This document shows, piece by piece, positions 58,354 to 63,984 of a stretch of DNA of 64,000 nucleotides. Every line of letters starts with the position of its first letter. Positions within the stretch are counted from its first letter, which is position 1. This DNA is from a virus, in IMG/VR virus record IMGVR_UViG_3300030380_006185, positions 1-64,000 of that record. One strand, given 5' to 3'. Made by a program: the position numbers and the translations under genes. The notes beneath the pieces were generated by a model. The model had not been told where the DNA came from and did no database searches. It was given only the letters and a program-made list of their open reading frames with translations.

Positions 58354-58635
58354 TTACTTAGTTTTAGTTATCCACTTATTATTTACATACTTACCAATTA
58401 CCAAACTACCATCAGCCATTAATCTAACTGTAAGTGTGTACACTCTTTTCTTACCTGTATATTTACTTACATCATTATACCACACCTTAAATGTATCACA
58501 GTTCCAATTGTTCCATACTTGAGCAATATCAAGATTTGGGTATCTAGACAGAACAAACTTTTTGACATCTACATTATTAACCATTACTTTTTCCCTTAAC
58601 ACCATTACATTTTCCATAAATCTCATTTTAATCAT
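58354..58635 (-). CDS. Early hypothetical protein (likely start 58626 or 58617)
   Basis: Degenerate early promoter at 58632-58673. Confidence 0.6.
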   Translation of the reverse strand: MIKMRFMENVMVLREKVMVNNVDVKKFVLSRYPNLDIAQVWNNWNCDTFKVWYNDVSKYTGKKRVYTLTVRLMADGSLVIGKYVNNKWITKTK

Positions 58636-58673
58636 ACCACAATATACGAACCAGCACTCGCTAACCCTCTACC
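58632..58673 (-). promoter_or_regulatory. Early promoter (variant)
   Basis: GGT-N23-GTATATTGTGGTAT. Confidence 0.55.
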
Positions 58674-58904
58674 CTTGATATCTTGGCTGAGCATCTGGTT
58701 ACGTAGATCGTAATTTGGATCGTATCCGCACGCTTTGAGTACCATGTACAATGTTTTCCAACGTGTTTCTAGGTGGCGATAATGCTTGCTATCTGTACCA
58801 TATAACTCTTTCCACTCATCTTGTGCTACCCATGATTGCGCCTCTAATTTTTGCATGATTGCTATTGTACCTCTCTTTGTCATATACTTTTGTTTTTTGG
58901 TCAC
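58632..58904 (-). CDS. Early hypothetical protein (likely ATG start 58883)
   Basis: ORF immediately downstream of a structured RNA. Confidence 0.55.
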   Translation of the reverse strand: MTKKQKYMTKRGTIAIMQKLEAQSWVAQDEWKELYGTDSKHYRHLETRWKTLYMVLKACGYDPNYDLRNQMLSQDIKGRGLASAGSYIVV

Positions 58905-59081
58905 CTAAAGCCCTACACATGGGTTGGTGTAGAGCCGTTGGCGATTGTATAATTAAAAAAGATATGGGTTTTATTTTGATGGCTAAAACCCTTAAACCAA
59001 ATATCTATACTCACCTCGCTGCTCCCCTCTATTTTAAGCAACCCAACCATTTCTTGGTCATTCCTCTCGCCGAGGTGAGTA
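58901..59081 (-). ncRNA. Candidate structured RNA (RNA1) containing the antisense of the early-gene leader
   Basis: 11-bp perfect stem 59008-59018/59071-59081, 8+6-bp stem, 9-bp stem, 7-nt loop pairing; CAUAUCUUUUUUAAUUAUAC segment. Confidence 0.6.
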
Positions 59082-59092
59082 ATACCAATTTC

Positions 59093-59296
59093 TTATTTAA
59101 ACCTACCGTACTGTTTTTTCATACCAAGTACTTCTTGTATCTCATCACTACTAATACCACCCTCACTTATAGGTGCATCCAATAGTATCTTCATCATTTG
59201 CATTACGATTGTATACTCACCAGTTTTATTAGCATCATCCAACAATCCTAGTTTCATCTCTTTACTCAATCCCAACAACATTTCTTTTTCAAACAT
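59093..59296 (-). CDS. Early hypothetical protein
   Basis: Own promoter copy. Confidence 0.7.
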   Translation of the reverse strand: MFEKEMLLGLSKEMKLGLLDDANKTGEYTIVMQMMKILLDAPISEGGISSDEIQEVLGMKKQYGRFK

Positions 59297-59310: not shown

Positions 59311-59352
59311 TTATACTACAATATACGAACTATCTATCTAAACTGGTATTCA
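59311..59352 (-). promoter_or_regulatory. Early promoter
   Basis: TGA-N23-GTATATTGTAGTATAA. Confidence 0.75.
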
Positions 59353-59935: not shown

Positions 59936-59953
59936 CTTTTTTCTTTTTTTTAT

Positions 59954-60121
59954 TTATACTTTATTTATTAAATCACTTACTTCTTTTCTAAATCCTTCAT
60001 CCTCCAAATACTTCTTACCATTTGTATACCACCATTCCTGAGATACATAACCAATAATATCATCTACAAATACTAAATTGTAGGACTTATAATAATAACC
60101 TCTTAACATTGTTTCTAACAT
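59954..60121 (-). CDS. Early hypothetical protein, 55 aa (not in ORF track)
   Basis: MLETMLRGYYYKSYNLVFVDD...; directly after promoter copy. Confidence 0.65.
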   Translation of the reverse strand: MLETMLRGYYYKSYNLVFVDDIIGYVSQEWWYTNGKKYLEDEGFRKEVSDLINKV

Positions 60122-62461: not shown

Positions 62462-62476
62462 ATTTTATCTTTTTAA

Positions 62477-62518
62477 TTATACTACAATATACAAATTTTT
62501 ATTAAATAACAGAAGTCC
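62477..62518 (-). promoter_or_regulatory. Early promoter
   Basis: GGA-N23-GTATATTGTAGTATAA; hairpin gaagtcct/aggacttc (62512-62532) overlaps the GGA box. Confidence 0.8.
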
Positions 62519-62554
62519 TTTAACAGGACTTCCATTACTATATATAATTAAAAA

Positions 62555-62968
62555 TTAACTCTTAAATTCTTTACTTACAAAATCCTTAACCATATTATTA
62601 ATTAATTCTTTAATATCAATTCCTTTATCAATACCATTTAATATTAATTCTTTTTCAATATTTCTTTTACAATTATAATCAACACTTCCTACAATATTAA
62701 ACAAATTTTTATTTTCCTTATAACCATATCTTCCTACACTATTATAAGTAATTCTAATATTAAATTCATCATTAACCTTATTAACAAAATCATTTAATTC
62801 ATTTTCTAATTTTTCCTTTTTTAATTCTACTTCTCTTAATTCCTCTAATAAACTAAAATCAACATTTTCATTAACAATTTTTAAACATTTATCATTAACT
62901 TCCTCTACAACTTTACTATAAACTTCATTACTAACAACATCTAACTCAATTCTACTTAATTTACCCAT
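62555..62968 (-). CDS. Early hypothetical protein (single cytosine in the whole CDS)
   Basis: 137-aa ORF; only + strand G is at 62748. Confidence 0.7.
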   Translation of the reverse strand: MGKLSRIELDVVSNEVYSKVVEEVNDKCLKIVNENVDFSLLEELREVELKKEKLENELNDFVNKVNDEFNIRITYNSVGRYGYKENKNLFNIVGSVDYNCKRNIEKELILNGIDKGIDIKELINNMVKDFVSKEFKS

Positions 62969-63662: not shown

Positions 63663-63704
63663 ATATACTATAATATACGAATAATCTTTTTATAATAAAC
63701 TTCC
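63663..63704 (-). promoter_or_regulatory. Early promoter
   Basis: GGA-N23-GTATATTATAGTATAT. Confidence 0.8.
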
Positions 63705-63820
63705 TGGGTAATATAGGTTTGTTTGGTTGGGTACAAACCTGAAAACCATCCCGTTACCTCTTGCATTACTCAGTAACCCGCTAGCAAACATTGTAATCCC
63801 CGTTCTAGTAGGGTAATAAA
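63705..63820 (-). ncRNA. Candidate structured RNA (RNA2)
   Basis: GC-elevated intergenic stretch; perfect hairpin AGGUUUGU-ACCCAACCAA-ACAAACCU; GUUAC/GUAAC stem. Confidence 0.4.
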
Positions 63821-63825
63821 CTATT

Positions 63826-63984
63826 TTAATTCATCCATGAACATCTATCTTCCTGATTTAAATATTCAATAGGTACATAACCATACGTGGCAACCTCTTG
63901 TTTCAGTATCGATATAGATTCTTTAATGTTGTAAGTTAAACCTAGTGATTTAATATAATCTTTTAAAATATCATTTTCTTTCAT
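63826..63984 (-). CDS. Early hypothetical protein, 52 aa (not in ORF track)
   Basis: MKENDILKDYIKSLGLTYNIKESISILKQEVATYGYVP... Confidence 0.6.
   Translation of the reverse strand: MKENDILKDYIKSLGLTYNIKESISILKQEVATYGYVPIEYLNQEDRCSWMN

Follow-up and report, generated by a model that had tools for sequence, protein, structure and literature searches.

Why should the gap between two small genes of a phage hold an inverted copy of the leader with which its early genes begin? This question arises in a stretch of 64,000 nucleotides (hereafter the window) that forms the first 64 kb of a 156,273-bp IMG/VR virus record (IMGVR_UViG_3300030380_006185), of about 30% G+C and with nearly all genes on the minus strand. 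A T4-type major capsid protein Gp23, a Gp20 portal and a T4-type terminase were identified in the genome with Pfam, and the nearest cultured phage by capsid protein is Flavobacterium phage vB_FspM_immuto (60% identity; hereafter immuto). We refer to it as a marine T4-like flavobacterial phage. Because the capsid protein is closest to that of immuto, a host among the Bacteroidota is likely, and the A-rich leaders without Shine-Dalgarno sequences agree with this placement. The site studied is the gap between the small minus-strand genes P0001 and P0002, which an initial annotation had read as one folded RNA carrying the antisense of the shared leader, a candidate for shutting off many early mRNAs or for pairing with its own 5′ end. 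Our comparisons indicate that the structured RNA and the antisense tract (hereafter the anti-leader) are real and that the complementarity of leader and anti-leader has probably been selected. Pairing with a leader is plausible on the sequence evidence, and the multi-target shut-off, as one mode of such pairing, is unproven.

The early leader and its inverted copy

The early genes are preceded by a cassette of the form GGA-N24-TTYGTATATT-RTAG-TATAATTAAAAA..ATG. With a relaxed pattern allowing up to 4 substitutions, 24 copies were counted from 58.6 to 89.6 kb, every one of them on the minus strand; the plus strand has none. Nine of these promoters contain the exact 12-mer TATAATTAAAAA, and at most one mismatch gives 29 matches in place of the 10.4 ± 3.1 expected, so the leader common to the early genes was correctly recognized in the initial annotation. 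That annotation had also presumed that the leader is transcribed. The TATATT box keeps the pattern TAnnnT in 24 of 24 promoters, and the TATAAT of the leader decays to TATAAA, TCAAAA, TATCTT or TATGAT. In immuto, about 28 early promoters read GTTGC-N17/18-TATATT-TAGGTAT-CAATAATTAAAAC..ATG, with a conserved GGTATCAATAATTAAAAC after the TATATT box and GTTGC as a −35-like box at the proper spacing. Because of the TAnnnT counts and this layout, we take TATATT as the −10-type element; the use of TATAAT as the −10 box, which would leave the leader mostly untranscribed, was dropped on the same grounds. The immuto promoter thus backs the presumption, and TATAATTAAAAA would begin about at the transcript start, as judged from the spacing.

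The inverted copy is GTATAATTAAAAAAGATATG, on the plus strand at 58947-58966, and on the minus strand it reads as the anti-leader:

58947..58966, minus: anti-leader CAUAUCUUUUUUAAUUAUAC, composed of the core CUUUUUUAAUUAUAC and a variable CAU(AU) part
58991-58966, minus: 8-bp hairpin GGGUUUUA/UAAAACCC, present and essentially invariant
58947..59002, minus: near-invariant module of AUUUGGUUUAA, the 8-bp hairpin, AU(AU)C and the anti-leader, found at 35 metagenome loci

The core (58961-58947) complements GUAUAAUUAAAAAAG, with which the early mRNAs would begin. It is kept in all relatives, the sole change being an A-to-G in two of them (L058 and L059) that is compatible with a G.U pair on the minus strand. 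AAUUAUAC, which lies past the U-run, is also invariant, and within the module variation is greatest in the CAU(AU) part, which faces the start codon. The relatives (L numbers) were drawn from IMG/VR, from a metagenome scan (35 loci; 34 distinct versions together with earlier loci) and from contigs fetched via homologues of P0002, and in them the constant module reads ATTTGGTTTAA-hairpin-AT(AT)CTTTTTTAATTATAC. In the set anchored on P0002, which is unbiased by the module search pattern, identity is 96% for the module, 81% for the coding sequence of P0002 and 86% for the hairpin and 5′ untranslated region (UTR) of that gene. The exact leader complement is thus under stronger constraint than the neighbouring genes. 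Since the 8-bp hairpin never varies, the comparison is uninformative on its pairing. The initial annotation had drawn an 8+6-bp stem that hides part of the anti-leader; its 8-bp part is present, but the 6-bp extension is unsupported, two of its pairs being deleted in 11 of 19 relatives and the others broken in 6-8.

Recurrence of the design in this phage and in immuto

In addition to the copy at 58947-58966 that the initial annotation had listed, a second inverted 12-mer lies at 62543-62554, within a cassette of the same design:

62470..62554, minus: second cassette (stop codon, anti-leader, hairpin, promoter, leader)
62554-62543, minus: anti-leader UUUUUAAUUAUA, the inverted 12-mer
62533-62511, minus: hairpin between anti-leader and promoter
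62481-62470, minus: leader UAUAAUUAAAAA, with a predicted 13-bp long-range helix to the anti-leader

In three relatives, with flanking proteins of 84-92% identity, this cassette has hardly changed, and all the changes lie in the hairpin loop. The design is also found in the type-b contexts of seven relatives (L008, L029, L036, L041, L028, L043 and L038), and in type-b relatives as well as at 62554-62470 a helix of 12-20 bp between the anti-leader and the next leader is predicted to form around the intergenic hairpin. Beyond the 62554 cassette, no anti-leader of at least 12 nt matched to a variant leader was found in this genome. As a separate observation, the plus-strand copy at 62543 is preceded by TTAACA at 17 nt, and this sigma-70-type match (window 62520-62548, plus), the best of an 8-kb scan, faces antisense into the gene at 62555-62968.

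Immuto has its own pair. TTTTTAATTATTGAT (72098-72112) is intergenic, stands right after the stop codon of immuto26A_136 and is complementary at 15/15 positions to ATCAATAATTAAAAA, with which the leader of the next gene begins; the two are separated by a terminator hairpin and a promoter. The immuto 15-mer differs from the anti-leader of this phage and holds five specific non-U letters that match its own leader. The adjacent leader is matched best in both cases (15 positions in immuto versus 14 for the commoner AAAAC leaders; 12 versus 11 in the 62554 cassette), and, apart from the copy at 58947-58966, each anti-leader is followed on its own strand, 60-80 nt further downstream, by the leader that it matches. 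Complementarity sets in 1-3 nt ahead of the expected +1 in three cassette families and does not reach into TATATT in any of them, a boundary that fits selection on RNA and not copied promoter DNA. The covariation of leader and anti-leader that the initial annotation proposed as a check is therefore seen across lineages, between this phage and immuto (15/15), and not within this lineage; it rests on one independent lineage.

A second candidate in immuto (about 67569-67582) lies between divergent promoters, has no hairpin and was not counted. Nearby in immuto (MW353175.1, about 67450-67570, reverse strand; L078), an early-type promoter (AGTTGC..TATCTTTAGGTAT) opposes the direction of the genes and is followed by about 100 nt of G+C-rich non-coding sequence, which may be a small RNA gene.

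Exchangeable RNAs and genes around the module

The 180 nt taken as a single folded element in the initial annotation do fold better on the minus strand (−60.9 kcal/mol, z −4.1) than on the plus strand (−50.5 kcal/mol, z −2.65), but they consist of three independent, freely recombining modules. On either side of the near-invariant module stand the following structures:

59005..59084, minus: three-way-junction small RNA ("cargo"), about 77 nt, with covariation
59081-59071 with 59018-59008, minus: P1, closing stem of the junction
59059-59055 with 59049-45, minus: P2, junction helix
59042-59036 with 59024-59018, minus: P3, junction helix
58901..58944, minus: extended hairpin in the 5′ UTR of P0002, loop CAACCCAU, with compensatory changes
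58936-58927 with 58918-58909, minus: its inner 10-bp stem, covarying
58944-58940 with 58905-58901, minus: its outer 5-bp stem UCGCC/GGUGA, covarying

Among 20 distinct sequences of the junction, 98.7% of the cells of its 19 pairs are paired and 6 pairs have changed on both sides, whereas slid controls are 32-54% paired and the covariation score was reached by 0 of 500 shuffles. By the test for structured RNAs with compensatory changes, the junction belongs to that class, and its U.G pairs put it on the minus strand. An alternative D-arm-like hairpin, CCUC..GAGG, is possible. The 11-bp stem closing a three-way junction was thus rightly proposed as far as the junction is concerned and has 11 bp in the window, but C59018 of the eleventh pair is also claimed by P3. 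A covariance model of the junction (R1) finds a single genomic copy at 98 bits. We considered and rejected a tRNA at this position: ARAGORN reports no tRNA in the window, RF00005 gives no match up to E 10, the P2 loop, with 4 to 6 nt among relatives, is shorter than the 7-nt anticodon loop of a cloverleaf, and only the D-arm-like CCUC(U)GGUA(G)AGG recalls the tRNA-Gly of L003. With Rfam 15, no family reaches its gathering threshold in the window (best sub-threshold match csRNA, 19.4 versus 57 bits), and the cargos of nine relatives have no match apart from the tRNA of L003. The junction is a new covarying small RNA.

The extended hairpin upstream of P0002 shows compensatory changes of U-A to C-G and of A-U to G-C, its outer stem is ACACCA/UGGUGU in L020 and L046, and its G.U pairs are workable on the minus strand only. 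The hairpin that had been described with a 9-bp stem is thus real, with a stem of 10 bp and an additional outer stem of 5 bp. The pairing of its loop CAACCCA with UGGGUUG that had been proposed along with it is not supported: GGG:CCC alone is constant, its target shares positions with the covarying P3, and the motif of the loop stays where the junction is replaced by a tRNA (L003) or missing (L040). Elsewhere in the window (63700-63830, minus), a G+C-rich non-coding stretch shortly before the promoter at 63681 contains a perfect hairpin AGGUUUGU-ACCCAACCAA-ACAAACCU, whose loop is complementary to UGGUUGGGU of the three-way junction and resembles the C-rich loop of the P0002 hairpin.

Across the loci, the module of about 56 nt follows six or more different cargos, or no cargo, and precedes any of three different units. 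Upstream stands the junction, of which there are two covarying subtypes, a genuine tRNA-Gly(UCC) exactly in the junction slot (L003), or one of at least four further stem-closed elements that measure 60-130 nt and can occur as a tandem pair; in L040 the slot is empty, and in L058 and L059 the anti-leader directly follows a stop codon. Downstream stand the hairpin and gene of P0002, or another, terminator-like hairpin with a canonical promoter and another gene. Unrelated inserts are found at ATTT/GG between junction and module, just before the latter, in L017/L026, L034/L044, L043, L049 and L051/L052, with 3-4 nt duplicated at the joints, and L051 and L053 differ by exactly one insert, which has an 11-bp closing stem. 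None of the stem-closed inserts before the module matches Rfam, and they look like exchangeable or mobile small-RNA cassettes. Such a "cargo slot", where a tRNA and structured RNAs unrelated to it stand in for one another, enlarges the poorly understood set of stable RNAs in large phages. In L028 a TATATT-like box immediately precedes the module, with a spacing that is off by one, and we did not use it to propose a stand-alone gene. In the five-tRNA cluster of this genome, beyond the window, the spacer between tRNA-Leu and tRNA-Glu (80534-80632) contains about 95 nt of C-rich sequence with hairpin potential, and tRNA-Ala is followed by UUUUUUAAUUAAAUU.

The genes on either side are as follows:

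59093..59296, minus: early gene P0001, 67 aa (open reading frame and translation; homologues in relatives)
about 59329-59297, minus: its own canonical promoter and leader, from the promoter pattern
58632..58883, minus: gene P0002, 83 aa, without its own promoter or canonical leader

In the P0002-anchored set, the differences at the three codon positions number 292/205/486, which argues that P0002 is a genuine coding gene. No PHROGs family was found for ten small proteins of the region, including P0001, and P0002 has no family either; 3 kb around the site, searched as nucleotides against a phage collection, likewise matched nothing. The start of P0002 (AAAGTATATGAC; ..ATGGTA in relatives; window 58881-58890) looks like the promoter box TTYGTATATTRTA, and a full promoter of the next gene lies inside the 3′ end of P0002 (window 58636-58661). 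A T4 late-promoter motif, TATAAATA, stands at window 59947-59958 (minus) upstream of the small gene 59935-59711, within the early array.

Possible partners of the anti-leader and known systems

What, then, would the anti-leader pair with? We tentatively favour the reading that it is a selected RNA element pairing with a leader, most likely locally in the same transcript. A minus-strand early transcript would start near 59329, pass P0001, run on into the non-coding region and continue into P0002; transcription of the region as one RNA, its start and any effect on translation or decay are inferred. Such a transcript would carry an exchangeable stem-closed small RNA in a slot also used by tRNA-Gly or other structured RNAs, then the conserved hairpin with a single-stranded U-rich tract complementary to the first ~14 nt of the early leader, and then the structured 5′ UTR hairpin of P0002. 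The partner may be the leader at the transcript's own 5′ end, since every transcript with the module would begin with a leader, or the leader or start region of the next gene on a read-through RNA. Pairing would occlude an A-rich ribosome landing site devoid of a Shine-Dalgarno sequence; alternatively, it may create a duplex for processing and so free the upstream stable RNA. Local pairing is ranked first because all other instances have a same-strand partner within 80 nt and T4 provides a precedent.

With the 24 leaders, the predicted duplexes have a mean of −9.4 kcal/mol for an RNA that starts in TATAAT and of −7.3 kcal/mol for one that starts after it; shuffled anti-leaders give −6.1 ± 0.9 kcal/mol (best −9.5), and in pairing the anti-leader ranks near the top of the 29-nt windows of the whole early region. 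It is unpaired in the centroid fold calculated without the P0002 sequence. With P0002 included, the unpaired probability is 0.01-0.2 at 14 of 20 anti-leader positions and above 0.4 at five, and in the minimum-free-energy fold the U-run pairs with AAAGAGAGG (codons 3-5, into codon 6) and UAUAC with GUAUA at the start codon. This pairing with the P0002 start region is predicted in most relatives.

Several observations weigh against the favoured reading. No canonical leader follows at this locus, although the anti-leader is invariant here, which argues for a partner elsewhere, either the transcript's own 5′ end or leaders in trans; for this reason both the own-5′-end variant and action in trans are kept alive. 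Compensatory changes are absent from the helices with the P0002 start, one of which is disrupted in 9-13 of 23 sequences. The duplexes with leaders consist of A-U pairs except for one or two and are weak at 37 °C. The leader core TAATTA is its own reverse complement and therefore lowers the information content of the leader/anti-leader match, and U-runs followed by AAUUA also trail ordinary terminators. Within the lineage, the CAUAUC and CAUC variants have the same upstream leaders, so no tracking is seen. The design is also rare: about one of the 24 promoters here has it, the 154 distinct promoters of relatives yield two cassette families, and of some 28 promoters in immuto a single case is clear. 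Finally, the conserved loop and 5′ flank of the module hairpin are left without explanation.

The multi-target shut-off proposed in the initial annotation would need a small RNA (sRNA), composed of hairpin, anti-leader and 3′ hairpin and released, for example, by tRNA-type processing, that silences many early mRNAs in trans. We regard this as doubtful. Its minus-strand structure and the match of leader and anti-leader across lineages stand, and its architecture is that of a classical base-pairing sRNA, with a 5′ hairpin, a single-stranded seed that is open without P0002 and a 3′ hairpin, which in relatives is a reasonable terminator (GAGCCCGA-GUAA-UCGGGCU, then U3-5). In L003 the unit directly follows a tRNA, as a trailer-derived sRNA would, the exact 12-mer occurs in nine promoters with near matches in about 15 more, and the seed has stayed invariant here without a downstream canonical leader. 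A search of the genome for the family of the translational regulator RegA also gave no match, but control genomes were equally silent, so its absence is not established. At this locus, however, a discrete RNA would have no promoter and no good terminator at its borders, folding of the unprocessed transcript predicts a paired seed, the duplexes are weak and exceeded by the best shuffle, and the part opposite the start codon is the least conserved. The other three families, moreover, have the anti-leader after a stop codon with its leader 60-80 nt downstream, and the anti-leaders of immuto and of 62554 match that adjacent leader better than others. An extended form, in which the unit is cut from the early transcript beside the tRNA-like cargo, pairs with about 10-24 early leaders and stops their Shine-Dalgarno-independent translation as a global timer in place of a RegA-type protein, leader and anti-leader co-evolving between phage genera, seems to us unlikely.

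The inverted copy might also be a by-product at the DNA level, that is, a recombination scar or working part of shuffling, or a second site for a DNA-binding factor that recognizes the conserved start of the early units; RNA pairing would then be without function. The module is a constant joint between many neighbours, a signature of recombination at a conserved regulatory sequence; intergenic cassettes are more conserved than the surrounding genes; cargo is inserted at ATTT/GG with short duplications; and shuffling mediated by the PeSL cassettes is described in T4-type phages (PMC2839356, PMC4122927). Yet the copy is inverted with respect to all 24 promoters, so homologous exchange would invert the DNA, the complementarity ends at the predicted transcript start in three independent cassettes, and an independent lineage has its own matching pair. 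The changes seen also leave room for G.U pairing on the minus strand (A to G in L058 and L059; TATGGT facing AUUAUAC in L038), and we consider a DNA by-product to be rather unlikely. That the U-run is simply the tail of a terminator formed by the 8-bp hairpin at the end of the stable-RNA transcript, with its likeness to the leader due to AT-rich composition, is less probable still. U6 does lie within 3-5 nt of the hairpin, UUUUUUAAUUA-like tails follow ordinary terminators (window 22726 region, tRNA-Ala trailer, L041), and the module comes after a tRNA, a small RNA or a stop codon. The 8-bp hairpin, however, with 3 G-C and 5 A-U pairs, a 10-nt loop and a U-run that starts 3-5 nt past the stem, lacks the G+C-rich stem, short loop and U-tract 0-2 nt away of an intrinsic terminator, and a terminator scan was silent on it. 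The promoterless P0002 needs read-through, the anti-leaders of L058/L059, 62554 and immuto follow a stop codon without a preceding hairpin, AAUUAUAC past the U-run is invariant, and the immuto 15-mer matches its leader at five specific non-U letters. An inverted gene cassette, whose plus-strand promoter and start codon at 58964 would make an antisense RNA or a small protein, is very improbable. TATAAT, an A-run and ATG are present on the plus strand, a frame of 73 aa is open, and the copy at 62543 has a near-consensus TTAACA-17-TATAAT. But the sequence upstream of 58948 on that strand reads GCCGTTGGCGATTG, without the TATATT and GGA of all 24 promoters and without a −35 box, as the initial annotation had noted of the promoter boxes, and the full early-promoter motif (24 matches) occurs on the minus strand only. 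Because the ATG is also not kept (GTG in L057) and the frame spans cargo sequence that is exchanged between relatives, a plus-strand promoter or gene is unlikely; the frame has no family match and changes at all codon positions, and the G.U pairs assign the conserved structures to the minus strand. Translation from 58964, which the initial annotation had set against its own reading, is thus not a threat to it.

Local pairing with a leader has a precedent in the T4 genes e, soc, 49 and I-TevI, whose start regions are occluded on longer transcripts (PMC3014915). There, as proposed here, an upstream segment of the transcript pairs with a downstream start region, and transcripts from the gene's own promoter lack the inhibitory arm, which is exactly the geometry of 62554-62470, of the type-b relatives and of the immuto cassette. 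In T4, however, the two transcript classes are early and late and the occluded element is a gene-specific Shine-Dalgarno sequence, whereas here both promoters are of the same early class and the element would be the leader of about two dozen genes; the studied locus differs further in having no canonical leader downstream. The T4 RegA protein acts on A+U-rich start regions with a 5′ poly(A) tract in about 30 early mRNAs (PMC3014915). One factor acting on many early mRNAs is also the function proposed for an anti-leader RNA, but RegA is a protein, and here the candidate is an RNA with Watson-Crick complementarity.

The PeSL promoter-terminator cassettes of T4-type phages serve modular shuffling (PMC2839356, PMC4122927). 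Like them, the module is a short conserved cassette between small early genes of a hyperplastic region, and its mosaic neighbours fit; the layout of stem-loop and then promoter also fits neighbouring intergenic regions (e.g., 61853-61800). A PeSL, however, consists of a stem-loop and an early promoter in gene orientation, and at 58885-59092 there is no promoter box on the gene strand and the leader copy is inverted. T4 also encodes the stable RNAs C and D, small structured RNAs of the tRNA region (PMC3014915). They are placed like phage tRNAs or co-transcribed with them, and the junction here occupies the slot of a tRNA-Gly; it lies, however, in the early small-gene region and not in the tRNA cluster at about 79.5-80.7 kb, and is not known to resemble RNAs C and D in sequence or model.

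The streptococcal csRNAs (RF02379) share with our element the order of hairpin, single-stranded complementary tract and hairpin, and they act on start regions as it might, but at the sub-threshold score given above it is no member of that family. Two further RNAs offer analogies only: 3′ETS-leuZ, an sRNA from a tRNA 3′ trailer that is released beside a tRNA-like structure, and the c4 RNA of P1 and P7, which acts on a start region of the same transcript. Both immuto and its host are in culture, so the hypothesis is directly testable in a relative that has its own leader/anti-leader pair. To our knowledge, the only agents of early shut-off described for T4-type phages are proteins (RegA, RegB) and gene-specific hairpins; if the pairing works, the anti-leader would represent a simple, sequence-programmed control of a whole temporal class of mRNAs in hosts whose translation does without Shine-Dalgarno sequences.

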